This document shows positions 4,652 through 29,859 of a DNA stretch of 64,000 nucleotides, piece by piece. The notes below the pieces were generated by a model that was not told the origin of the DNA, made no database searches, and saw only the letters and a program-made list of their open reading frames with translations. The first letter of the stretch is position 1; every line of letters begins with the position of its first letter. The position numbers and the translations under genes were made by a program. This stretch comes from an uncultured bacterium (GTDB lineage: Bacteria; Actinomycetota; Acidimicrobiia; Spongiisociales; ZC4RG35). Where the stretch lies: the NCBI GenBank assembly GCA_963785075.1, contig CAWATW010000004.1:338516-402515 (forward strand), in the 5' to 3' direction.

Positions 4652-5933
4652 GCTCCGCAGCCTGCCGCTTCTCGTCCAAGGGTCCCTCGCGCGGGTCGTC
4701 GGGCACGAGCTGGAGGTACGCGGGCTCCGACTCCGACTGGGAGACGCTCTGGAAGTGACGGGCGTCGACGGATCCAGGCTGGCCGAGGTCGTCGCCGTCG
4801 AGCCGGAAGGCGCCACCGCCCTGGTATACGGCGACACCACGGGTTTGGGTCGCGGCGACCGCGTCACACGCCTCGACAGCGTGCCGGGTGCGGTCGTCGG
4901 ACCGGCACTCGTGGGAAGGGTCGTGGATGCACTGGGGCAGCCGATGGACGGGAAGGGACCGATTCTCGGCGAAGCCGTCAGGCTCGACTCCAACACCCCG
5001 GCCGCCATGGAGCGGCGTCGCATCGACACTCCGATCACCACCGGTGTGCGCCTCATCGACACCCTCTGCACCATCGGGAAGGGCCAGAGGGTCGGCATCT
5101 TCGGCGGATCGGGGGTCGGCAAGTCCACCCTGCTGGGAATGCTCGCGAAGGGGCAGCAAGCCGACGTCGCGGTGATCGGGCTCATCGGTGAGCGCGGCCG
5201 CGAAGTTCGTGAGTTCATCGAAGACGAACTCGGTCCCGAAGGAATGGCCCGGTCGATCGTCATCGTCGCAACGTCGGATCAACCGGCCCTGCTCCGACTC
5301 CGAGCCGCCCTCTACGCGACCCGGGCGGCGGAGTGGTTCGCCGATCGCGGAAACGACGTTGTGCTGATGATGGACTCGATCACCCGTCTCGCAATGGCCC
5401 AGCGCGAGGTCGGCCTCGCTGCGGGCGAGCCTCCGACCGCACGTGGCTACACCCCCTCCGTGTTCTCCATGCTGCCGAAGATCCTCGAGCGGTCGGGACC
5501 GCGGGTCCATGGCACCATCACGGCCCTCTACACCGTGCTCGTCGACGGCGACGACATGAACGATCCCGTGGCAGATGCCGTTCGAGGAATCCTCGACGGA
5601 CACCTGGTTCTGGACCGCAACCTCGCGGTTCAGGGTCGATATCCCGCCATCGATCCCCTCGCTTCGCTCAGTCGTCTCGCCCAGAAACTGTGGAACGAGC
5701 GCCAGGCACGGGTGGCTTCCGCCACACGCGATGCGCTCGCTGCCGCGACCGAGGTCCAGGAATTGGTCGAAGTCGGCGCGTACGTGTCGGGATCGAACCC
5801 TCGGGCGGACAAGGGCCTACGGGTCGCGCCGCAGCTCGTGGAGTTTCTCAGACAGCGGCCGTCCGACCTGACACCGGCGGAGAGGTCATGGCAGGCGCTG
5901 TCAGAGATCTGCACGAGAGGTGAGCTCATATGA
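4641..5933 (+). CDS. fliI: flagellum-specific ATP synthase FliI
   Basis: Walker A GGSGVGKSTLLGM, Walker B VVLMMDSITRLA, F1/T3SS ATPase fold. Confidence 0.92.
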   Translation: MADELRSLPLLVQGSLARVVGHELEVRGLRLRLGDALEVTGVDGSRLAEVVAVEPEGATALVYGDTTGLGRGDRVTRLDSVPGAVVGPALVGRVVDALGQPMDGKGPILGEAVRLDSNTPAAMERRRIDTPITTGVRLIDTLCTIGKGQRVGIFGGSGVGKSTLLGMLAKGQQADVAVIGLIGERGREVREFIEDELGPEGMARSIVIVATSDQPALLRLRAALYATRAAEWFADRGNDVVLMMDSITRLAMAQREVGLAAGEPPTARGYTPSVFSMLPKILERSGPRVHGTITALYTVLVDGDDMNDPVADAVRGILDGHLVLDRNLAVQGRYPAIDPLASLSRLAQKLWNERQARVASATRDALAAATEVQELVEVGAYVSGSNPRADKGLRVAPQLVEFLRQRPSDLTPAERSWQALSEICTRGELI

Positions 5934-6346
5934 AAGACATGTCCCGCCTCCTCCGGGTCCGCAAGATCTGGGAGAAGCAGGCCCGCTCACAACTGGGCGA
6001 GGCCACCACCGAACTGAACGAAGCGGAGACCCAGGCGGTCAAGTCTCTCGAGGAGCATCGGACCACGACCTCGGCCCCTCCTACGGGAACCCGGCTCGAC
6101 GACCTGACGGTCCGCCGTATCGCCGGCATGGCTACTCACGAGAGGTACACGGCGGCCGAGCTGGTCCGCCAGCAGGCCGATCACCGGGCCCGGGCTGCAC
6201 ACGGCGCGTGGCGCCGGAGCGCTCAGGACCTCGAGGTCACCGACAAGCTCGAAGAGCGCAGAAAGCAGGCGCTCGCCTATCTCGCACGCCGATCCGCCGA
6301 AGCGACCCTCGACGAGCTGATGGCGATGAGGAAGAGAACGAAGTGA
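5930..6346 (+). CDS. fliJ: flagellar export chaperone FliJ-like coiled-coil protein
   Basis: 138 aa, predicted coiled coil. Conserved position after fliI. ATGA overlap with fliI. Confidence 0.6.
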   Translation: MKDMSRLLRVRKIWEKQARSQLGEATTELNEAETQAVKSLEEHRTTTSAPPTGTRLDDLTVRRIAGMATHERYTAAELVRQQADHRARAAHGAWRRSAQDLEVTDKLEERRKQALAYLARRSAEATLDELMAMRKRTK

Positions 6347-10029: not shown

Positions 10030-10037
10030 TGCATGAC

Positions 10038-10066
10038 GGTCCTCGGGCCCACAGGGCCCGAGGACC
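10038..10066 (+). terminator. perfect 13-bp stem/3-nt loop hairpin immediately after the flgE stop
   Basis: ggtcctcgggccc-aca-gggcccgaggacc. No U-tract, which is usual for high-GC genomes. Confidence 0.45.
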
Positions 10067-10067
10067 G

Positions 10068-10088
10068 GCGAGGAGCGAGGAGCGAGGA
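10068..10088. repeat. (GCGAGGA)x3 tandem heptamers directly 3' of the hairpin
   Basis: gcgagga gcgagga gcgagga. Confidence 0.5.
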
Positions 10089-10371
10089 GCCAGACCCCCG
10101 CCCCTTCCTCGTCGACACCCTTCCCCATCGGCACAGAAGGGGTCGCCCACCCGTCTCAGCACTCACACCGTGGCCCGAAAGGCGGTTTGGCTCCTCGCAG
10201 CGAGCGAAGCGAGCGGCCTCGCCCCTGGCTTTTCGCACTCCAGCCAATGTCCTTACGCGGCTCTAGGACGCGCCGACGGGATCTTTGCAGGGTCGATGGA
10301 CGACCCCGACAGACACACGGAGGTGTCGAAGTGCCTACGCGCACCAGGACAAACAAGAGTGGGGGCTCCCG

Positions 10372-12516: not shown

Positions 12517-12685
12517 GAGGGCGCATACGCGTACCGCCAGGGGATCCTCCGCACCTTCTCCGCCGAGTCCACCAGCGACCCGTGTCCCTCGTGCAGCGAC
12601 CCCGGCACAGCCGCTCCTCCGCATTCACTGAACCGCCCCCACCATCGGCCGACAGGCCTCACGTGGCACGAAACAGGACCTTCGC

Positions 12686-15426: not shown

Positions 15427-16665
15427 GTGGGAGCAGTTGCAGAGATCCTCCATCTCGACCTCGATGCGTTCTATGCATCGGTCGAGCAGCTCCTACGCCC
15501 CGAGCTCCGGGGCAGACCAGTCGTGGTAGGAGGCGGCGTGGTACTCGCCGCCTCCTACGAGGCCAGGGCCTTCGGTATATCGGCCCCCATGAACATCAGG
15601 CGGGCGAGAGAACTGTGCCCGCACGTCATCTCGGTGGGCGGGTCATTCGAGAAGTACTCCGAGCTCTCGCAACAGGTGATGGACATCTGCCGTGACGCCA
15701 CTCCCCTGGTGGAACAGATCTCGATCGACGAGGCGTTTCTCGACGTGTCAGGCTCCATCCACCTGCTCGGTGCCCCCGCCGACATCGGGGCCGACCTCAG
15801 AGCACGGATCCGGGCCGAGGTCGGCCTTCCCATCTCGGTGGGTGTGGCATCGACCAAGTTCCTCGCCAAGGTGGCCTCGGGCCAGGCCAAACCCGACGGC
15901 ATGCTCGTCATCGACCCCGCTCGTGAGCTCGAGTGGTTGCACGCGCTCCCCGTACGCGTGATCTGGGGTGTCGGACCGGTCACGGAGACCAACCTCATCG
16001 CCCACGGGATAGAACGGGTCGGACAGATCGCCGAGGCGCCTCCCGAGGCGCTCGCACGGTGGTTGGGACCTGGCGCCGGTCGACACCTCCACGCACTCGC
16101 CTGGAATCGTGACCCCCGATCCGTCAAGGTTGGAGGGCGGGCGGGTTCCGTCGGTGCCCAGAGCGCCCTCGGTCGCGGCCTCACCGCCGACTCGGACCTC
16201 GGCCGCGTCGTGCTGGGGCTCGCAGATCGAGTCTCGGGACGTATGCGCAAGAAGGAACGAGCGGGTCGCACGATCACCGTGCGGGTTCGCTTTGCCGACA
16301 TGGCCAGCGTGACACGGTCCGTCACCCTCCCGGCCGCAGTGTCGACCACGGCAGCGCTTCATCATGCGGGCCTCGAGCTGTTGGCCTCGGCTCGCGCCGA
16401 TCGACCAGGGATCGTGACGCTGGTTGGCATCAGCGTCTCTCATCTCGAGCAGGGCGAAACCCTCCAACTCGAGCTGCCCTTCGACCAGGGTGACCCGACC
16501 CGTGCAGGCAGCCCTCGTGGGGCGGCGCACCTCATGATCGACGAACAGGTCGACGCAGCCAGGGAACGTTTTGGGAAGGATGCGGTCGGCCGAGCATCGG
16601 TGATGCTCGATCGGAACGCGAGGGGCGTTCCCGACGGCTTCCGCGAGTTGGCCGAGAAGGAGTAG
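15427..16665 (+). CDS. dinB: DNA polymerase IV (Y-family, DinB)
   Basis: ILHLDLDAFYASVEQ, RPVVVGGG, AASYEARAFGI, SIDEAFLDVSG and VGVASTKFLAKVASGQAKPDG are all DinB motifs. GTG start. Confidence 0.85.
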   Translation: MGAVAEILHLDLDAFYASVEQLLRPELRGRPVVVGGGVVLAASYEARAFGISAPMNIRRARELCPHVISVGGSFEKYSELSQQVMDICRDATPLVEQISIDEAFLDVSGSIHLLGAPADIGADLRARIRAEVGLPISVGVASTKFLAKVASGQAKPDGMLVIDPARELEWLHALPVRVIWGVGPVTETNLIAHGIERVGQIAEAPPEALARWLGPGAGRHLHALAWNRDPRSVKVGGRAGSVGAQSALGRGLTADSDLGRVVLGLADRVSGRMRKKERAGRTITVRVRFADMASVTRSVTLPAAVSTTAALHHAGLELLASARADRPGIVTLVGISVSHLEQGETLQLELPFDQGDPTRAGSPRGAAHLMIDEQVDAARERFGKDAVGRASVMLDRNARGVPDGFRELAEKE

Positions 16666-16765: not shown

Positions 16766-17512
16766 ATGCGGCTGACGGTCATCGGGTCTGCGGGCGGATA
16801 TCCGGCACCGGGTGTTGCCACCTCCGGCTACCTCATCGACCACGGCGAAACCAGGATCTGGTGTGACATCGGTCCGGGCACGGTGGTCGGGTTCCCAGAC
16901 CGGTTGGACACTGTGGACGCGGTCGTCGTCTCCCACGAGCACCCGGATCACTGCCTCGACCTGATCGCGCTGTTCCACGCCCTGGCGTACCGCTTGGGGC
17001 CACCACCAGGGCCTCTGGCGGTGTATGCCCCGCGCCCGGCGATCGACAAGGTCAGAGCCTTCGTGACTCCCGACCAGACGGAACTCATCGACCGAACGTT
17101 CTCGTTCCATCCCATCGAGGTCGATTCGATCGTGGAGGTCGGATCGATTCGGGCCACCTTCGCCGAGACCACACACCCCGTGCAGACGGTGGCGATGCGA
17201 TTCACGGCCGACGGCCACAGTATCGCCTACACCGGCGACACCGGCCCCGCCGGCGACTGGACGAGGGTCGCCGTCGACGCCGACCTACTCCTGTGTGAGG
17301 CGACGTTCGTGGGCACACGAGACGACTACCCCTACCCGTATCACCTCAACGCCTTCGAAGCCGGGCGCATCGCAGCCGCGAGCGGCGTCGACCGGTTGGT
17401 ACTGACGCACATCCCGATGCATTGGGACCCGGCACGATCGCTGATCGAGGCGGGGACCCACTTCGACGGGGATCTGCGCCTCGCCGAGCCCGGTGCCTCC
17501 TGCTCGATCTGA
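16766..17512 (+). CDS. MBL-fold metallo-hydrolase
   Basis: VVVSHEHPDHCLDL (HxHxDH motif) plus downstream His/Asp ligands. Confidence 0.75.
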   Translation: MRLTVIGSAGGYPAPGVATSGYLIDHGETRIWCDIGPGTVVGFPDRLDTVDAVVVSHEHPDHCLDLIALFHALAYRLGPPPGPLAVYAPRPAIDKVRAFVTPDQTELIDRTFSFHPIEVDSIVEVGSIRATFAETTHPVQTVAMRFTADGHSIAYTGDTGPAGDWTRVAVDADLLLCEATFVGTRDDYPYPYHLNAFEAGRIAAASGVDRLVLTHIPMHWDPARSLIEAGTHFDGDLRLAEPGASCSI

Positions 17513-17615
17513 TTCCGACGGCTTACGCGATCGGTCCCCAGGCCGACTGGAATCCTGATCAGGGACGAGAGAACGACGCCCAGGGACGTGGCGGCCACCC
17601 TCCATTTGGGATGCC

Positions 17616-22079: not shown

Positions 22080-22886
22080 TCACCCGGCGAGCGGATCGGC
22101 TTCCAGTTCCGACTCCGGCAGGGTCGCAAACACTTGCGCCGTGGCTTCGGCGAAGAGGCGGGACTCCGTCTCGACGAACCCAACGTGGCCATCGAGGTCG
22201 AGACGCTTCATAGCGATCCGGAGTGGTATGTCCAGACATCGTGTGGGGGACTCGTCTTCGACCGCGCACATCGCTGCGGCGAGCGCCCGCTCCATCTCGG
22301 TGACGGGCTCGTGATGGGCGGCGACGGCCGCCACGATGTCGGTGGGGAGATTCCACTCGGCGAGCATCTTGGTGCCCATCTCGAGATGATCGGTTTCGTA
22401 CGCCATTCGCTCGCGACGCAACATCTGCTGGTCCTGGTACCCCCGCATCCACTGCTTCCGACGCCATGCCAGGAAGCCTTCGTCCGTCGTGAGCAGTCCG
22501 GCCGTGCCGGCGGCGGAGAACAGCCCCGCCACGAACAACTGCTCGTTCTCGGCCCGGGAGAAGCCGAGGAGGCGTCCGATCAGCTTGGCGGCACGGCCCA
22601 CGACGAGAGACTCCTCCCACAGCTCAGGGGCACCCCAGGTGTCGACCAGCTCGCGGTTCAACGACGCCATGGCGAGAGCACCCACCGAGCGGCAGCCGAC
22701 TCGGATCACAGCCTCCATCACCGTTCCCACGGGATACACGGCGCCGACGTACGCAGAGTTGGCATACCGCACGACCGCTGCTGCCGTGTCGGGGATCGTC
22801 GCCACGCGGGCAGCTACCTCATACAGGTCCGGATCGTTGGCCATAGCCGCCGTCCAGAGCTCTACCTTGCGCGAGCCGAGGTCCAT
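22080..22886 (-). CDS. HDOD-domain protein (paralog 2)
   Basis: ..VYPVGTVMEAVIRVGCRSVGALAMASLNREL.., ..LFVAGLFSAAG.., ..AHHEP.. are HD-related output domain signatures. About 65% identical to the adjacent paralog. Confidence 0.7.
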   Translation of the reverse strand: MDLGSRKVELWTAAMANDPDLYEVAARVATIPDTAAAVVRYANSAYVGAVYPVGTVMEAVIRVGCRSVGALAMASLNRELVDTWGAPELWEESLVVGRAAKLIGRLLGFSRAENEQLFVAGLFSAAGTAGLLTTDEGFLAWRRKQWMRGYQDQQMLRRERMAYETDHLEMGTKMLAEWNLPTDIVAAVAAHHEPVTEMERALAAAMCAVEDESPTRCLDIPLRIAMKRLDLDGHVGFVETESRLFAEATAQVFATLPESELEADPLAG

Positions 22887-22998
22887 GATGCGTCAATATC
22901 TCCTTGGAGGACCGGTCGGCCGTTTCGGACGCTGGAAAAGACCTCGGGAGGCGTTGATCGGGCCTGTACGCCGATTCCGGCGCCCAGGCGTGGATCTG

Positions 22999-23811
22999 TC
23001 AGGCGACTCGTTCGGCGACACGCTTCGACGCCACTGCGGCTCCGGGTGAGTCGCCCTCTCCGAACACGGCCTCCACGTACCGAAGCGCCTCGACGCGCAC
23101 GGAATCCACGTGCTTCGACAGTCCGATCTCGTCCATCGCTGCGGTGAACGGAGTGTCATGACACCTCGTTGCCGATCGTGAATCCGGGATGGTCATCCCC
23201 GCCCACAAGGCGAGGTCGAACCGATTCCGGGGCTCGTGATGCGACGCGACCGCATCGATGATCGAGGTGGGCATGTTCCACTCGTCGAGCAGGCGAGACG
23301 CGGCGACCACGTGATCGAACTCATAAGCCATCCGCTCACGATGCAGCATCTGATCCTCGCCAAGCCCCTTCACCCATTGGTTGGCTCGCCACGAGAGGTA
23401 GCCGGCGTCCTGGGCGCTGAGCGCAGCGGCACCTGCACTCGAGAAGAGACCAGCGACGAACAGGGACTCGGATTCGCGGCGGGGGAAGCCGTGGAGCCGA
23501 CCGATCATTCGAGCTGCACGGCCCACAGCAAGGGCGTCTGATGCCAACTCGGGGATGTCCCACCGATCGGCCAACTCACGATTCAGCGAGGCGAGCGCTA
23601 TCGCTCCGACCTGCCGACCACCGATCCGCACGACTGCGTCGAGCACACTCGCGACGGGGTACACCGCACCGACGTAGGAGGAGTTGGCGAAACGGATGAC
23701 CGCGCTCACCGTATCGGGGATCGTGCCGAGCAGTGCAGCGATCCCGAACACATCGGGCTCATCATCCGAGGCCAATCGCCACAATTCGAGTTTGCGCTCA
23801 ACGACATCCAT
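22999..23811 (-). CDS. HDOD-domain protein (paralog 1)
   Basis: Start chosen at MDVVERKLELW by alignment with paralog 2 (MDLGSRKVELW). Carries ..ASHHEP.. Confidence 0.7.
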   Translation of the reverse strand: MDVVERKLELWRLASDDEPDVFGIAALLGTIPDTVSAVIRFANSSYVGAVYPVASVLDAVVRIGGRQVGAIALASLNRELADRWDIPELASDALAVGRAARMIGRLHGFPRRESESLFVAGLFSSAGAAALSAQDAGYLSWRANQWVKGLGEDQMLHRERMAYEFDHVVAASRLLDEWNMPTSIIDAVASHHEPRNRFDLALWAGMTIPDSRSATRCHDTPFTAAMDEIGLSKHVDSVRVEALRYVEAVFGEGDSPGAAVASKRVAERVA

Positions 23812-23867
23812 CACGTCACGCTCCCCCGTCGACCAGGTCGGTGCGACCAAAAGCGCTTGGCAGCGGA

Positions 23868-24740
23868 TCAGCCCGCTTCGTACAGACGAGCGTTGCCGGT
23901 GGTGGCGGACTCGAGCAGCGACTCTGCATCGAGTCGGGTGCGCCAGTTCGATTGATCGGCCATGCGAGCGACGTAGGCGGCTCGTGCGCGCTTCCCGGGC
24001 GCAGAATCCGGGGAAGGCTCGACGCCCTCGTATTGGGTCGAGAAGAACGAGCGCATGGCCATCAGCGCCTCCGACCGGATCTGACTGACCCGGGCCTCGG
24101 TGAGACCGAGATCGTCGGCGATGTCCTGTAGGAGCTCCCCTTCCAGGTAGTAGCGGGAGATCACCTCGGCCTGAACGGTCGGAAGATGGCGAACGGCGTC
24201 CACGAGCGACCCCCGAAGCTCGCGCTGCTCGAGCGCCACCTCGGGGAGCGTCTCCACCCGCTCTTCTTCCACGCGGTCGGCAAGCGAGGTTTCGTCGGTC
24301 TCACTCGGTTGGTCGAGGTGGAGCAGTGTGCTGGTGGCGGCGTGGGCCTGCCGGCTGTTGAGCTCGGCGACGGAGATACCCAGGAAGGCGGCGATCTCGT
24401 CGGTGGTGGGGGGACGTCCGTGCTGCTCCTCGAGCCCGGTCTGGGTCTCCTGGATCTCGCGGAGCCGGCGGCGAACGGATCGGCTGGCCCAGTCCCGGGT
24501 CCGTGTGGAGTCGATGATGGCACCGCGAATCCGGATTGCGGCGTAGCGGGCGAACGGTATCCCGGATTCGGGGTCGTACCGCCGGCTGGCCTCCACGAGA
24601 CCGAGTGCGCCGGCGTTCCAGAGTTCGGAACGATCGACATGACGCGGATACCGCGCCGACACTTCACTGACGATGTGGCCTACGAGATCGAGGGTTTCCG
24701 AGACGAGCTCGTTCTGCTCCTCCGCCGTCAACGCTGCCAT
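23868..24740 (-). CDS. fliA: flagellar sigma factor sigma-28 (FliA/WhiG family) with a ~55-aa C-terminal extension
   Basis: ..RYPRHVDRSELWNAGALGLVEASRRYDPESGIPFARYAAIRIRGAIIDSTRTRDW.. is region 2; ..LLQDIADDLGLTEARVSQIRSEALMAMR.. is region 4. Start set at MAALTAEEQ (24740) so as not to overlap the divergent gene at 24880; the upstream in-frame ATG at 24818 (MALKDQ..) and the ORF-track start at 24905 would run into that gene. Confidence 0.8.
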   Translation of the reverse strand: MAALTAEEQNELVSETLDLVGHIVSEVSARYPRHVDRSELWNAGALGLVEASRRYDPESGIPFARYAAIRIRGAIIDSTRTRDWASRSVRRRLREIQETQTGLEEQHGRPPTTDEIAAFLGISVAELNSRQAHAATSTLLHLDQPSETDETSLADRVEEERVETLPEVALEQRELRGSLVDAVRHLPTVQAEVISRYYLEGELLQDIADDLGLTEARVSQIRSEALMAMRSFFSTQYEGVEPSPDSAPGKRARAAYVARMADQSNWRTRLDAESLLESATTGNARLYEAG

Positions 24741-24879
24741 GATGTGGACCCCCAAATGCGTGCCGAATGCCTTACGTTTCAGGGATCGGACAATCGGGGG
24801 CTGATCCTTGAGGGCCATATTTGCATAGTCACTCGCCCGAATCACGAAACCTCGGCGCGATCGGCCGACAGGTCCCTCG

Positions 24880-25329
24880 ATGACAACGGCACTGGCCTCT
24901 CCCACGTACTACGACCTGATCGGTCTCCTCGCCAACGAACGCCGACTCCTCGAGCGGCTTCTGTTCCGCCACGCAGAGATCTCGATGCTGATCGCCGCGG
25001 GCGAGCACCGATTCGTCGGCCGCGCCGTCGACGAGGCCCTCGAAGTCGAGGCCGAGCTCGCCGCATGTGACCTCACCAGGGCGATGATGCTCGTAGGCCT
25101 CACGCCTCACGGTGACGACATGTCGATGGCCGAGCTCATCTCCGAGGCACCCGCCGAGTTCGAGACGCCGCTCGGCGATCTGACCCGCGACATGAAGCGA
25201 ATCATGGCCCAGGTGGATCGATATCGTCGCGAGGCGGCAGCTTGGGCCGGGGAACGAGCCGAGCAGGTTCGGCAGGCCATCGAGCGCTTCGGCGCCGAGA
25301 CCTACTTGGACGGCCGGTTGGGGTCCTGA
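24880..25329 (+). CDS. FlgN-family-like protein (paralog of the flgN at 28332-28844)
   Basis: LLANERRLLERLLFRHAEISMLIAAGEHRFVGRAVDEALEVEAEL aligns with LHAERQLLEHLLFKLIEARLVLAADEARFLPQAMREVEAIVDRV of the other copy. 3' end overlaps csrA convergently by 28 nt. Confidence 0.5.
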   Translation: MTTALASPTYYDLIGLLANERRLLERLLFRHAEISMLIAAGEHRFVGRAVDEALEVEAELAACDLTRAMMLVGLTPHGDDMSMAELISEAPAEFETPLGDLTRDMKRIMAQVDRYRREAAAWAGERAEQVRQAIERFGAETYLDGRLGS

Positions 25330-25562
25330 AGCTTGAGTCCCGTCGCCTTCGTCGACAACAAGCTGGACTTCAGGTCGGTGGACGCAGCGGCTGCACGGTT
25401 CTCAGCCAGCACCTGCTCGTATATCTCCGCACGATGAACCGCGAGACTCCGCGGTGCATCGACGCCCACTCGTATCTGACCGCCTCGAACCTCGAGGATG
25501 GTGATCACAACATCGTTCCCGATGACGATGGACTCGCCGGCTCGTCTGCTCAGCACCAGCAT
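25302..25562 (-). CDS. csrA: carbon storage regulator CsrA
   Basis: MLVLSRRAGESIVIGNDVVITILEVRGGQIRVGVDAPRSLAVHRAEIYEQV is canonical CsrA. 1-nt TGATG overlap with fliW. Confidence 0.88.
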   Translation of the reverse strand: MLVLSRRAGESIVIGNDVVITILEVRGGQIRVGVDAPRSLAVHRAEIYEQVLAENRAAAASTDLKSSLLSTKATGLKLQDPNRPSK

Positions 25563-25954
25563 CAGCCGGCGCTCACAGGCAGCAGCGCCCTGATCGGGTA
25601 GTCCTGGTCGGTGAGTACGACCTGACGCCCCATCCGGGTCTTCACGTTGACGATGAATGGTCCCAACAGATTCATGTGTGCACTCTTGCGGTCGGAGTCC
25701 AGCGTAACGGCGCAGAACACGACCGCATCCTGTTCCTGCTCGATACCCAGCCCCGCCTGGTCGACGTCGGTGAGCTCGGGGGCATAGTCGGGAAAGAACA
25801 GCCACGGCACGCCAACGACGATCGCCAAGTCGGGATCATCGACGTTCTGGAGCAGCTGGAACGCTCCGTCGTCGACGAGTTCGACGAGTTGGAAGCGATG
25901 GGCATCCGGAAACCCGGGAATCCCATCGTCGAACTCCAGATACTGCTCATCCAT
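25562..25954 (-). CDS. fliW: flagellar assembly factor FliW
   Basis: 130 aa, ..GIPGFPDAHRFQLVEL..DPDLAIVVGVPW.. Forms a fliW-csrA pair as in Bacillus. Confidence 0.8.
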   Translation of the reverse strand: MDEQYLEFDDGIPGFPDAHRFQLVELVDDGAFQLLQNVDDPDLAIVVGVPWLFFPDYAPELTDVDQAGLGIEQEQDAVVFCAVTLDSDRKSAHMNLLGPFIVNVKTRMGRQVVLTDQDYPIRALLPVSAG

Positions 25955-26061
25955 CGGCGGCTACTTCCTCGATCGGCTCGTGCAGGGAATGAGGGTAGTG
26001 GCCCGGACCCCCGGTGGCCGGTAGGGACGGTGTCTCGGTCGATCGGGCGGGTGGAGGCAGG

Positions 26062-26955
26062 TCAGCGGAGGAACGATGCCAGTGACGGCTGCAGGGACTT
26101 GGCAAGGGCGCTCTGTGCCGCCTGATAGGCCGTCTCCTGGATCTGAAGCTCCATGATGGCCCTGGCCATGTCTGTGTCCTCCGTCTCGGACAGCGCGGTT
26201 CTCATGCTGACCTCGTCGGCCTGGGCCCGGAACGCAGCCTTCTCGATCCGGTTTGCCGCCGCGCCAACCGTGGCGCGGGCCGTGAGCATCCGGTTCATCG
26301 ACCGATCGATCCGATCGATGGCCGCTCCGATGCCCGCTCTGTCCTGGCTCCTGAACGCAGTCTCCAGATCGTCGAGCATGGTGAAGACGTCCTCACCGGC
26401 AGTGAAGCCGAAGACCTCGTCACCGGTCACATTCACCTTGACCACGTCATTCTCCGACACCCGACGTGTCACCTCACCCGTGTCGCCCTCGTAGGTCCAG
26501 GCGCCGGCGACCTTGGCGACGGCATCGCCGGGTCGGAAGCCCGAAAACAGAGGGCGGCCGTTGAGCTTGGCGTTGGCGAGAGACTGCACCGACTCTCGGA
26601 TTTCGGCGATCTCGACCGCCATTGCTTCCATCTCGACCGATCCTGCGGTGCCATTGCCTCCGAGGACCGCGAGCTCGCGCACGCGCTGGAGCTGTTCGAC
26701 CATGGTCCCCATGCGGGAGTCCGCGAGTTCGGTCCAGAGCATCCCGTCGTCGGCGTTGCGCTGTGCCTGGGCATTCGCCGCCAGCGCCGCGCGCATGCCG
26801 AGCGCGGTGTTCATACCTGCGACATCGTCACTGGCGACGTGGATGCGACGCCCGGTGGCAAGATCGCGCTGCGATCGCTCGAATTCGCCGATGCGAGTGT
26901 TCATTCGCTGGACCGCGAGGTCGACCATCATTCGGTTGGTGATCCGCATGTTCAT
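26062..26955 (-). CDS. flgL: flagellar hook-associated protein 3 FlgL
   Basis: MNMRITNRMM..GRRIHVASDDVAGMNTALGMRAALAANAQAQRNADDGMLWTELADSRM..LQRVRELAVLGGNGT has the FlgL pattern rather than the flagellin N-terminus. Confidence 0.75.
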   Translation of the reverse strand: MNMRITNRMMVDLAVQRMNTRIGEFERSQRDLATGRRIHVASDDVAGMNTALGMRAALAANAQAQRNADDGMLWTELADSRMGTMVEQLQRVRELAVLGGNGTAGSVEMEAMAVEIAEIRESVQSLANAKLNGRPLFSGFRPGDAVAKVAGAWTYEGDTGEVTRRVSENDVVKVNVTGDEVFGFTAGEDVFTMLDDLETAFRSQDRAGIGAAIDRIDRSMNRMLTARATVGAAANRIEKAAFRAQADEVSMRTALSETEDTDMARAIMELQIQETAYQAAQSALAKSLQPSLASFLR

Positions 26956-26961
26956 CTCTCA

Positions 26962-28332
26962 TTACCTCCCGACGATGCCCATTCGATTGATCACAGTGTC
27001 GAGCGCCTGATCGACGGTCGTGATGACCCTCGCCGCCGCCTCGTACATCCTCTGGAATTCGATGAGACTCACCATTTCTTCATCAACTGACACGGCGTGA
27101 CTCGAGGACCGGGCGAGGTCGGCGGCCGACGAGAGACCGGCCTGAGTCTCCGACGACATGCGGGCTGTCGCCGATTCCTGTCCCAAGGCCGTCACGAACG
27201 TTCGATACGACTCGAGCAACGACTGCGTGCCTCCGGACGCAGCGAGCGTCGATCGAAGATCGGACAGTCTCTGGGCGTTGGAGCCGTCGAAGGTGGGATA
27301 CGGCGGTCCGGCCGACGATGCCGTCGCCAGATCGGCGGGAGCGGCGATGACCACCCTGAAGGTGGTGGCCGGCGAACCGGCGTCGAACGTCACAAGCGGA
27401 CCACCTGGGGCGCCGGCAGCCGTGAACCCGGCGGCGTGCGTGGTGTTCAAGGCATCGGTGAGATCTCTCACGAAGTCGTCGAGCCGCGTCTTCATCGCCG
27501 GGATGTCCTCGGTGACCGAAAGCTGCAATCCGCGCAGCTCACCGCCGGGGACCAGTGCAACGCCACTGGCGTGAAGCACTTGCCCCGTGCCCTCGTCGTA
27601 GGAGAGTGGACGGGAGGTCGACCCGTTCACGAGTGAGATACCGCCGATCATCACCCTGGCATTGCCGTTGTCTTCGATGGCGACGCTGACGCCGGCGAGC
27701 TCTGACAACCGGTCGAGCAGCATGTCCCGCTGATCCATCAGGTCGTTCGGCGAGCCTGGGGCGGTGGACGCGTCGAGGATCGCCACGTTCAGCTTCGCCA
27801 CCTGATCCAAGGCGTTGTTGATCTCTTGGACGGTCGAACGGATCGAGACCACACCGTCCTGTCGAAGGGAGTCCAGCCCAGTACCCACAGCCGCTACGCG
27901 CCCGGTGAGTGCACCGAGTTGTTCGATCACGGCCACACGGGAGGCTTCGTCGGAGGGGTTGAGGGCGAGATCTTCGAAGGCGTCGAACACCGATCCGAGT
28001 TCCGCGGTGACGCCCATCTCAGGCTCGGCCAAGATCTGTTCGGCCCGGTCGAAGAACGAGGCACGCGCCTCGATGTTGTGCCGTGCCGAGACACTCGACC
28101 GATACCGTGCGTCCAGAAAGGTGTCACGCACCCGGTTGATGTCAGTCACCTTCACTCCCAATCCGACCTGACCGTTGGGGGTCATTCGGGGATACCTCGA
28201 CGCCATGTCGACACGCTGGCGGGTGTATCCGGCAGTGTTGGCGTTCGACACATTGTGGCTGGCGGTGTCCATGGCGAGCTGGGCCGCTCGCAGTCCGCTG
28301 AGCGCAACATGCAGCGCCGAGAAGTCTGCCAT
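26962..28332 (-). CDS. flgK: flagellar hook-associated protein 1 FlgK
   Basis: MADFSALHVALSGLRAAQLAMDTASHNVSNANTAGYTRQRV.. and C-term ..SVDEEMVSLIEFQRMYEAAARVITTVDQALDTVINRMG. Confidence 0.85.
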   Translation of the reverse strand: MADFSALHVALSGLRAAQLAMDTASHNVSNANTAGYTRQRVDMASRYPRMTPNGQVGLGVKVTDINRVRDTFLDARYRSSVSARHNIEARASFFDRAEQILAEPEMGVTAELGSVFDAFEDLALNPSDEASRVAVIEQLGALTGRVAAVGTGLDSLRQDGVVSIRSTVQEINNALDQVAKLNVAILDASTAPGSPNDLMDQRDMLLDRLSELAGVSVAIEDNGNARVMIGGISLVNGSTSRPLSYDEGTGQVLHASGVALVPGGELRGLQLSVTEDIPAMKTRLDDFVRDLTDALNTTHAAGFTAAGAPGGPLVTFDAGSPATTFRVVIAAPADLATASSAGPPYPTFDGSNAQRLSDLRSTLAASGGTQSLLESYRTFVTALGQESATARMSSETQAGLSSAADLARSSSHAVSVDEEMVSLIEFQRMYEAAARVITTVDQALDTVINRMGIVGR

Positions 28333-28844
28333 CAGAGCACCTCATCGATGTGGGTGGGAAGAACGGCAGTCTGGCGACCACGAGTTCCGCTTGGTGTGTA
28401 CGTGCCTGCGTCCTGGGTCCCCAGCAACGTTCCGAGCGTGTCTGAGAGGCTCTGTACTGCAAGCCCGGCAAGACGTCGATTGTCGAGCGAGGCCTGTTCG
28501 ATCTCGGTCGTGAGACGTCGGAAGTGATCCTGATGCTCCTGGAACATGGTTCGAAAGGGCTCGGGTGACCAACCGACGAGGAACTTCATGGTGATTCGGT
28601 CTTCTGGTTCGCCGATGGCATCCGCCAGTCGTTGCACCGCAACCCGACGATGACCCTCTCCGAACCGCACGCGGTCGACGATCGCTTCCACCTCGCGCAT
28701 CGCCTGCGGAAGGAAACGCGCCTCGTCAGCCGCAAGTACGAGGCGCGCCTCGATCAGCTTGAAGAGAAGATGCTCGAGCAGCTGACGCTCGGCGTGAAGC
28801 GTCTCAGCGAGCTCGGCCAGCTGTTGGCGGTAGGCGATGCTCAT
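28332..28844 (-). CDS. flgN: flagellar export chaperone FlgN-family protein
   Basis: Position upstream of flgK as in B. subtilis, FlgN-like helical sequence. Alternative start at 28853. Confidence 0.6.
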   Translation of the reverse strand: MSIAYRQQLAELAETLHAERQLLEHLLFKLIEARLVLAADEARFLPQAMREVEAIVDRVRFGEGHRRVAVQRLADAIGEPEDRITMKFLVGWSPEPFRTMFQEHQDHFRRLTTEIEQASLDNRRLAGLAVQSLSDTLGTLLGTQDAGTYTPSGTRGRQTAVLPTHIDEVL

Positions 28845-28901
28845 CGTCAGCATCCTGTCGGCTCTCGAATTGGTGAATAAAGGCTTCGAGAGGGTTTCTG
28901 T

Positions 28902-29525
28902 ATGACCCGAGGATGGTCACTTCCCCTCGCCGACTGCACAGCTATCGTCGGGGGGGTGACGCGCGTTCTTCCCGATGACCCGGTGGAGCTCAAGAACCTG
29001 CTGGATGCAGCTCTCGACGAGCTCGAACGACTGAAACTCACCTTGGAGGTTGTCGGCACCACCGATCTCGATGCAGGGATCCTCAACCGAACGGGTGTCC
29101 TGGAGTCATTGGAACGGGGTCGAAGATGGATGGCGCGCCGCGGCGACATCTACGGGTTGGTCGTCGTGCGGTTCCCCATGCTCCGGCGACTGGATCCCAC
29201 CGACGCCGGCGACCTCGACTTGATCCAGCACCTCGCAGCGACGATCGGGGCCGGCGTCCGCGAGGTCGACGAAGTGGGGCGCATCGACGACCTCACCTAC
29301 GCGGCCACCCTGCAAGACCTGAAGCCAGGCACGATTCGGGTCGTGGTCGATCGCGTCCAGACCCTGCTCTCCAAGACACTCATGTCGATGCCGGATCTCG
29401 GCCATTTCAAGCTGGGTGCGGTCGAAGTGCTCAACGCCGGCCACACATCGGGCACGGTCCTCGAGGCGGCCATTCGGATATCGGACCAGGCGTCCATCGA
29501 CAATCACCGAGTCGGTCAGCTGTAG
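28902..29525 (+). CDS. degenerate GGDEF-domain protein (GGEEF replaced by RIDDL), probably catalytically inactive
   Basis: ..DAGILNRTGV..GLVVVRFPMLRRLD..LDLIQHLAATIG..EVGRIDDLTYAATLQD..VVDRVQTLL..KLGAVEVLN.. follows the GGDEF domain architecture with a degenerate active site. Confidence 0.45.
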   Translation: MTRGWSLPLADCTAIVGGVTRVLPDDPVELKNLLDAALDELERLKLTLEVVGTTDLDAGILNRTGVLESLERGRRWMARRGDIYGLVVVRFPMLRRLDPTDAGDLDLIQHLAATIGAGVREVDEVGRIDDLTYAATLQDLKPGTIRVVVDRVQTLLSKTLMSMPDLGHFKLGAVEVLNAGHTSGTVLEAAIRISDQASIDNHRVGQL

Positions 29526-29613
29526 GTCCAGGACCGGCCGGCGCCCTTCGCCGGCACCGGCACGAAGATGTGGCCACTTCAGCGTCGGCCGCCGCGGCCG
29601 ACAGGAAGCCTCG

Positions 29614-29859
29614 ATGATCAGATTGCATCGCATCCGTGGCGAGGAGTTCTTCCTCAATGCCGACCTGGTCGAGAGCGTGGAAAACACGCCCGACACGGTC
29701 CTCACGCTCTTCGACGGGCGCAAGATCGTGGTCCACGAAAGCGCCGAAGAGGTGGCTGAACTCATCACCACATACCGGGCATCGGTGCTACGACTCGCAG
29801 ACGCCGTTCGAAGTGGTGAGCGGAACCTGGTGGCGTTCCCCGGCGGGCGCGAAGACTGA
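29614..29859 (+). CDS. flbD: flagellar protein FlbD
   Basis: MIRLHRIRGEEFFLNADLVESVENTPDTVLTLFDGRKIVVHESAEEVAELITTYRASVL, compare Bacillus/Borrelia FlbD MIKLTRLNGQEFYLNPDLIE..TPDTVITL.NGKK..V.ES..E.. Confidence 0.7.
   Translation: MIRLHRIRGEEFFLNADLVESVENTPDTVLTLFDGRKIVVHESAEEVAELITTYRASVLRLADAVRSGERNLVAFPGGRED

Follow-up and report, generated by a model that had tools for sequence, protein, structure and literature searches.

The common view of flagellar export chaperones is that each class of substrate has a single one (FlgN, FliS and FliT), and the question raised by the locus described here is what a second FlgN-like gene does beside the gene for the flagellar sigma factor, in a genome that already carries a canonical flgN next to flgK. 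The window, that is, the whole stretch of DNA analyzed, comprises 64,000 nucleotides from an uncultured bacterium of the class Acidimicrobiia (GenBank assembly GCA_963785075.1, contig CAWATW010000004.1, positions 338,516 to 402,515 of the forward strand) and represents a flagellar locus with a GC content of 65%. It appears reasonably probable that the open reading frame (ORF) in question, hereinafter flgN2, codes for a divergent FlgN paralog, FlgN2, which, like FlgN, would be a chaperone of flagellar type III export; in the best-supported reading, it originated by FlgN duplication, has diverged beyond the reach of routine annotation and is produced late, in a FliA-dependent manner. The genes and regions on which the argument depends are the following (window coordinates; loci of relatives are denoted by L numbers):

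24880..25329, plus strand: flgN2 coding sequence, 149 aa, a divergent FlgN-superfamily protein; the ATG is the first start codon past the upstream stop
23868..24740, minus strand: fliA, sigma factor of the FliA/WhiG sigma-28 family, 290 aa
24741..24879, no strand: divergent intergenic region between fliA and flgN2, 139 bp
28332..28844, minus strand: canonical flgN, 170 aa, directly upstream of flgK; Pfam FlgN 46.9 bits, over the 30.5-bit cutoff
25302..25562, minus strand: csrA, 86 aa, extended C-terminally by a long tail; closes the flgN-flgK-flgL-fliW-csrA row; Pfam CsrA E 5e-24, NCBIfam csrA above cutoff
25302..25329, no strand: convergent overlap of the flgN2 and csrA 3′ ends, 28 nt

The extent of flgN2, its divergent orientation with respect to fliA (whose ATG at 24740 sets the length of the intergenic region) and the overlap with csrA had all been claimed in the original prediction, and the coordinates bear them out. 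In GC-rich DNA, where long spurious ORFs are numerous, an open frame facing a region of minus-strand read-through could arise by chance, and an antisense ORF at 24829-25110 indeed displays a mirrored GC profile. Nevertheless, the probability that flgN2 is no gene at all is practically negligible. A search of 5.8 billion proteins retrieved 33 homologs with 50-96% identity, of about 142-166 aa and with a preserved N-terminus; all are unnamed or labelled hypothetical in the databases, and those with an organism name all come from metagenome-assembled genomes (MAGs) of Acidimicrobiia. Nucleotide differences fall mostly in the third position of the plus-strand frame (4/2/20 by codon position compared with L001, and 35/21/65 compared with L018), and the GC content by codon position (0.71/0.46/0.81) resembles that of the neighboring genes. 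Given, in addition, the confident predicted fold and the homology to FlgN described below, the spurious-ORF reading is rejected; judged by its conservation and substitution pattern, flgN2 is a real protein-coding gene under purifying selection.

The affiliation with FlgN emerges from comparison of the two proteins of the window and of their families. The two proteins share a motif block (ERRLLERLLFRHAEI versus ERQLLEHLLFKLIEA), as noticed in the original prediction, and BLASTP aligns them with 26% identity over 103 aa (E 2e-6). When the alignment of the flgN2 family was compared by hhalign with that of the canonical Acidimicrobiia FlgN, all members of which are over the Pfam cutoff (PF05130 is found in each of the 29 canonical homologs), the two matched over 136 columns, essentially the full length (probability 97.9%, E 4.7e-13). 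A similarity of this significance at the level of families is not compositional, so that one of the outcomes which could have undone the original prediction did not materialize. Within the flgN2 family, PF05130 is the only recurrent Pfam match, at E<=1 in 27 of the 34 members (best E 1.6e-5), and FliT (PF05400) matches none of the 34 at the same threshold. In L017, the most distant of the loci compared (an Actinomycetota MAG), the positional flgN2 ortholog scores 29.6 bits with PF05130 and the canonical flgN 29.0 bits. A search of 1.84 billion representatives with the flgN2 family profile yielded 355 matches at E<=0.001; when the top 149 of these were rescored against both profiles, 86 fell to the FlgN2 type and 63 to the canonical one. 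NCBIfam has a model for neither FlgN paralog of the window, and a literature search for a second FlgN or a FlgN paralog turned up no description of the flgN2 gene. By profile comparison, flgN2 shares ancestry with the canonical FlgN encoded in the same genomes and represents a divergent FlgN subfamily, not a textbook FlgN.

The predicted structure is compatible with this assignment. The AlphaFold model of the flgN2 product (pLDDT 88.6) consists of long helices (residues 10-40, 43-74, 83-89 and 92-143), with a strongly conserved helix1-turn-helix2 motif, LLFRHAEISMLIAAGEHRF, in the family. The model shows the elongated all-helical shape of the solved FlgN structures, with FlgN as the best structural match, and the protein is thus predicted to adopt the elongated helical fold of the FlgN/FliT chaperones.

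The gene neighborhood is the third line of evidence. Between csrA and the canonical flgN lie the remaining genes of the row:

25562..25954, minus strand: fliW, Pfam FliW E 5.8e-35
26062-26955, minus strand: flgL
26962-28332, minus strand: flgK

The arrangement in which flgN2 is divergent from fliA and convergent with csrA-fliW-flgL-flgK-flgN is common to L001-L009, L014 and L016. In L017, flgN2 is still divergent from fliA, and a Ser/Thr kinase gene separates it from csrA. The starts of fliA and flgN2 are separated by 139 bp both in L001 and in L003, by 140 bp in L008, by 136 bp in L006 and by 94 bp in L004; the called length of fliA in relatives is 290 aa as well, and its product contains the Pfam Sigma70 r2, r3 and r4 domains and matches the NCBIfam model FliA_WhiG with E 8.5e-54 (182.6 bits, slightly under the 189.6-bit cutoff). 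The typical linkage of FlgN genes (flgM-flgN or flgN-flgK) does not apply to flgN2, which is flanked by fliA and csrA and runs on the strand opposite to theirs, the flgK-adjacent slot being held by the canonical flgN. Taken together, profile-profile homology, fold and conserved synteny sustain the earlier designation of flgN2 as a second FlgN-family paralog.

If FlgN2 is an export chaperone, a feature that would connect it to the export gate can be pointed out near its C-terminus:

25303..25305, plus strand: codon of the invariant Tyr142 (an invariant alignment column), the candidate FlhA-docking tyrosine

In the hhalign comparison, Y142 of flgN2 pairs with the invariant Y149 of the canonical FlgN, which in turn pairs with Y122 of Salmonella FlgN in the best local, non-significant alignment. 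Many of the wider family members end in GY(R/S/G)xDGS, a motif that resembles LYGADGQ around Tyr-122 of the Salmonella protein (sequence verified against PDB 5B3D), the residue that docks the chaperone onto FlhA-C (PMC8527033). The correspondence between Y142 and the Salmonella tyrosine is one that we infer, because the direct alignment to the Salmonella sequence is not significant; Y142 is a candidate for the residue that docks the flgN2 product onto FlhA.

The evidence for late, FliA-dependent expression comes from the region upstream of the gene, where the following elements are discernible:

24864..24872, plus strand: sigma-28-like -10 element GCCGACAGG, 7 nt upstream of the flgN2 ATG
24844..24848, plus strand: weak -35-like position of flgN2, ACGAA in the window and CGCAA in relatives, 15 nt upstream of GCCGAC
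24807..24832, no strand: conserved intergenic block CTTGAGGGCCATATTTGCATAGTCAC, with the invariant columns CTTGA, AT and TAGTC across 8 loci
355-383, 10252-10280, 12628-12656, 17522-17550, 22912-22940 (minus strand), 23825-23853 (minus strand), 28854-28882 (minus strand) and 29577-29605: bipartite motif sites

In the intergenic alignment, CGAC.GG is invariant just before the flgN2 start codon. The same element, GCCGAC(A/G)GG, is found 5-9 nt before the starts of flgN2, flgN, flbD and, in most loci, the first HDOD gene (in the window and at least 6 other genomes). Anchoring 23 sites on CGAC revealed a second element, CTTWA, located exactly 15 nt upstream of GCCGAC. With up to 2 mismatches, CTTWA-N15-GCCGACRGG occurs 8 times in the window, compared with 0.87 occurrences expected, and none of 100 shuffles reached 8; all of them are confined to the flagellar half, upstream of flgB, motA, fliN, flhB, both HDOD genes, flgN and flbD, and the site upstream of flgN (28854..28882, minus strand) is a perfect match with 0 mismatches. 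At the site upstream of flgN2, the -10 element of the GCCGACRGG motif is perfect. The sigma-28 promoter consensus has been given as (-36)TCTAAAG(-30) and (-15)GCCGATAA(-8) (PMC12784957); the spacing of the bipartite motif agrees with this consensus, and GCCGACAG at 24864-24871 agrees with the latter at 6 of the 8 positions. Compared with promoters of the form TAAA-N15-GCCGATAA recognized by sigma-28 factors (FliA/SigD/WhiG), the motif of the window shares the conserved 5′ part of the -10 element (GCCGAC), the CTTWA element 15 nt upstream at most sites, and the restriction to flagellar genes; it differs in the 3′ half of the element (CAGG in place of the consensus TAA) and, in the case of flgN2, in the -35 element, which is CGCAA or CGAAA. 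All in all, CTTWA-N15-GCCGACRGG probably marks the FliA (sigma-28) regulon, and transcription of flgN2 by FliA would be in keeping with the conserved divergent pairing of a sigma factor gene with one of its targets. A CsrA-binding site was also considered for the GACAGG motif and discarded: several loci carry GGU or GGG in place of the GGA core, and the conserved part is GCCGAC.

The genes with the element 5-9 nt before the start (flgN2, flgN, flbD and the first HDOD gene) are devoid of a Shine-Dalgarno sequence, and internal operon genes have GGAGG-type sites. At such genes, the position of the element so close to the start codon would imply leaderless mRNAs, and the transcription start of flgN2 is predicted at 24879/24880. 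In the more distant relatives L014 and L017, flgN2 is not the first gene of its transcription unit: in L014 (5870-6004), a 39-codon ORF stands between flgN2 and the GCCGACAGG motif about 120 nt upstream, the end of this ORF overlapping flgN2 through an ATGA and flgN2 having a GGAGG ribosome-binding site in this locus, and in L017 flgN2 is preceded by a translationally coupled ORF of 184 aa, acidic and of low complexity (5450-6004), that overlaps its start by 4 nt. The 24807-24832 block, with the core CTTGAnGnCnAT...TAGTCAC, matches neither the sigma-70 consensus nor the sigma-28-like pattern and may be the promoter or an operator of fliA.

Combined, these observations suggest the following course of events. 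FliA (sigma-28) RNA polymerase would transcribe flgN2 from the GCCGACAGG -10 element, with the mRNA starting at the ATG or 1 nt before it, so that flgN2 would belong to the late flagellar genes and share its regulation with the flgN-flgK-flgL-fliW-csrA row. The product would bind one or more late export substrates of the filament type by their C-terminal helices and deliver them to the FlhA cytoplasmic ring via Y142, in the manner of FlgN Y122 in Salmonella. The two FlgN paralogs would then probably divide between them the substrates that one FlgN handles elsewhere (FlgK versus FlgL), unless FlgN2 serves another late substrate.

The range of such substrates can be gauged in a relative, in which the upstream cluster (L019, on the same contig as L001) was reached through a 99%-identical FliE. 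In L019 (1-8987), three flagellin genes, followed by fliD, fliS and an unassigned ORF of 103 aa in the FliT position, lie upstream of flgB, about 25 kb from flgN2 on the L019/L001 contig. The flagellin genes are interspersed with genes for a sulfotransferase and a 672-aa family-2 glycosyltransferase, which suggests that the flagellins are modified (glycosylated or sulfated). This arrangement bears on the possibility that FlgN2 takes the part of FliT in these bacteria, as a chaperone of the filament cap protein FliD recruited from a FlgN duplicate. Such a role is quite unlikely: the sequence homology is to FlgN and not to FliT, flgN2 is remote from fliD-fliS, and the classical FliT slot is held by the unassigned 103-aa ORF.

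Several observations weigh against FlgN2 being a second FlgN-type chaperone under FliA control. The original prediction proposed alignment to PF05130 as a check, and this gave a homology signal (E 0.0016, FlgN being the sole Pfam match of flgN2) that extends over residues 12-117 only and, at 19.3 bits, stays below the gathering score of 30.5 bits. A Foldseek search of the PDB with the flgN2 model returned only helical-bundle matches, none of them significant, such folds being easily matched. Neither the flgN2 family nor the canonical family produced a significant hhalign match to the single Salmonella FlgN sequence, and a sequence search of the PDB with the flgN2 family profile found no solved FlgN or FliT; the latter result is uninformative because the canonical FlgN profile found nothing in the PDB either. 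In place of the CTTWA of other flagellar sites, the flgN2 promoters carry a conserved CGCAA or CGAAA at -35. Finally, the known late substrates already have candidate chaperones in the close relative (FlgN by flgK/flgL, FliS, and the 103-aa ORF), which leaves FlgN2 without an obvious free client.

The same circumstance, together with the position of the gene, invites the view that FlgN2 is a chaperone-derived regulator and not, or not only, an export chaperone, which would couple the state of assembly to FliA activity, perhaps through binding of FliA itself or of one of its antagonists. Salmonella provides parallels in the action of FliT on FlhDC and of FlgN on the translation of flgM. In every locus, the distant ones included, flgN2 and fliA form a divergent pair; no FlgM domain was detected in the vicinity of those window genes that were scanned; and the conservation of LLFRHAEISMLIAAGEHRF is unusually strong for a chaperone. 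Moreover, Acidimicrobiia have been reported to be devoid of the anti-sigma factor FlgM (PMC10746217). All this notwithstanding, a regulatory role appears fairly unlikely, given that the divergent pair is equally well explained by FliA simply transcribing flgN2, that the retained C-terminal tyrosine motif points to FlhA docking, and that FlgN2 has no similarity to FlgM. A more specific variant, in which FlgN2 is a chaperone turned checkpoint factor that links filament-stage export to sigma-28 activity, for instance by binding FliA or by escorting FliA or its antagonist to the export gate, would explain why flgN2 is kept divergent from fliA and convergent with the FliW-CsrA module; we regard this variant as very unlikely.

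The second relationship to be explained is that with csrA, for which the original prediction suggested antisense interplay. In the window, the last 28 nt of flgN2 cover the final 9 codons and the stop codon of csrA, the shared segment coding for T141 (last base)-Y-L-D-G-R-L-G-S-stop on the plus strand and for L-Q-D-P-N-R-P-S-K-stop on the minus strand. The extent of the overlap differs among the loci:

window, L001 and L004: 28 nt
L003 and L008: 25 nt
L006: 40 nt
L014: 13 nt
L016: none, with a 6-nt gap
L017: none, with the kinase gene in between

The position of flgN2 is conserved and the overlap with csrA is not. The geometry postulated in the original prediction stands, and conservation of the overlap in relatives, which ranges from 40 to 13 nt and gives way to a gap or an intervening gene, does not. 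The conceivable selected function is that of an excludon-like device, in which collision or pairing of the 3′ transcripts tunes CsrA levels. In its favor, the overlap amounts to 25-40 nt in six related loci, and both units carry the same sigma-28-like motif and accordingly could be transcribed simultaneously. Scans of 23700-26200 for intrinsic terminators and sigma-70 promoters detected nothing, and sliding-window folding identified no hairpin past the 1st percentile of the background on either strand, so that the convergent transcripts would probably overlap; furthermore, fliA lies downstream of csrA on the same strand, and minus-strand read-through would cross flgN2 in antisense. Still, given the short overlap in L014, the gap in L016 and the kinase gene in L017, the variable length leaves selected antisense control unsupported, and the overlapped codons belong to the least conserved tails of both proteins, with the exception of Tyr142. 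In L018, a 73%-identical relative, the flgN2 protein ends right after the tyrosine, and no csrA-like frame was found in the 143 nt from the flgN2 stop to the contig end. Selection for the overlap as a regulatory device is therefore highly improbable.

The preferred explanation, that the overlap most likely arose in a compact genome as the C-terminal tails of the two genes, both under little constraint, grew into one another, also accounts for the recurrent end point. The TAG stop codon of csrA is the reverse complement of CTA, which consists of the last base of codon 141 and the first two bases of the Tyr142 codon, and this geometry holds in the 6 loci with overlaps of 25-40 nt (the window, L001, L003, L004, L006 and L008); the frame of csrA just continues across the weakly conserved tail of flgN2 up to the constrained tyrosine codon, which provides a stop. 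An Rfam scan of 23500-26500 detected no RNA family, save for two sub-threshold chance matches outside flgN2; a sub-threshold match to radC RNA lies at 26191-26325 on the plus strand, antisense to flgL (27.7 bits against a gathering score of 40, E 0.01), which is probably due to chance.

Several other genes of the flagellar locus deserve mention:

22080-22886 and 22999-23811, minus strand: two tandem HDOD-domain genes, immediately downstream of fliA
29614-29859, plus strand: flbD, 81 aa, ATG at 29614 (a start at 29636 is out of frame); Pfam FlbD E 6.9e-25; apart from the main operon and with a motif-bearing promoter of its own

The HDOD genes, both of which are preceded by the sigma-28-like motif, are kept in nearly all related loci (as a single copy in L014 and L016, and with an HD-domain gene in L017), and their products are candidate motility signalling proteins. 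The usual position of flbD, just upstream of motA in the main operon, is occupied by an ORF of 77 aa (10033-10266, plus strand). A conserved ORF of 189 aa (28956-29525, plus strand), divergent from flgN, has no Pfam match in the window copy, and its positional counterparts in L014, L016 and L017 give weak to clear GGDEF matches; it may encode a degenerate diguanylate cyclase linked to motility. Between fliR and flhB, genes for a DinB-type translesion polymerase (IMS domains; 15427-16665, plus strand) and a protein of the metallo-beta-lactamase fold (16766-17512, plus strand), identified by length and position relative to L001, are inserted; the insertion is kept in relatives, with variable orientation.

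Thus, a second, deeply diverged FlgN paralog, labelled hypothetical in the databases, has been fixed beside the flagellar sigma factor gene in an uncultured clade of Acidimicrobiia. Should FlgN2 be only a subfunctionalized chaperone, this would amount to a useful annotation and a modest evolutionary note; should it be true that FlgN2 exerts feedback on FliA, it would reveal the way in which the late-gene checkpoint operates in these actinobacteria without FlgM. The flagellum-specific CTTWA-N15-GCCGACRGG motif is of practical value for the annotation of these genomes and suggests that the FliA regulon is transcribed largely as leaderless mRNAs.

Among known systems, the closest counterpart of FlgN2 is FlgN itself, the export chaperone of the hook-filament junction proteins FlgK and FlgL (Salmonella FlgN, PDB 5B3D; Pseudomonas aeruginosa PA3352, PDB 2FUP; Bacillus subtilis YvyG). 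FlgN2 belongs to the same superfamily, as judged by profile-profile comparison with the FlgN of its own genome and by the best structural match; it is likewise an all-helical protein of about 140-170 aa encoded in a flagellar cluster, with a conserved C-terminal tyrosine in a Y-x-(x)-D-G context (compare LYGADG in Salmonella). Unlike FlgN, it falls below the Pfam gathering score, is only about 26% identical to the canonical copy, is additional to the canonical flgN beside flgK/flgL and is linked to neither flgM nor flgK. With FliT, the export chaperone of FliD and an anti-FlhDC factor (PDB 3A7M, 5GNA, 3H3M and 6CH2), it shares neither a sequence or profile match nor the location after fliD-fliS. 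At the level of the locus, the window, on its minus strand, has the same row, flgN-flgK-flgL-fliW-csrA, as the flgM-flgN(yvyG)-flgK-flgL-fliW-csrA-hag locus of B. subtilis with its FliW-CsrA-flagellin partner switch. In contrast to the latter, however, there is no flgM upstream of the row, the flagellin genes are some 25 kb away in a close relative, and the place after csrA, where B. subtilis has its flagellin gene, is taken by the convergent flgN2 and then by fliA.
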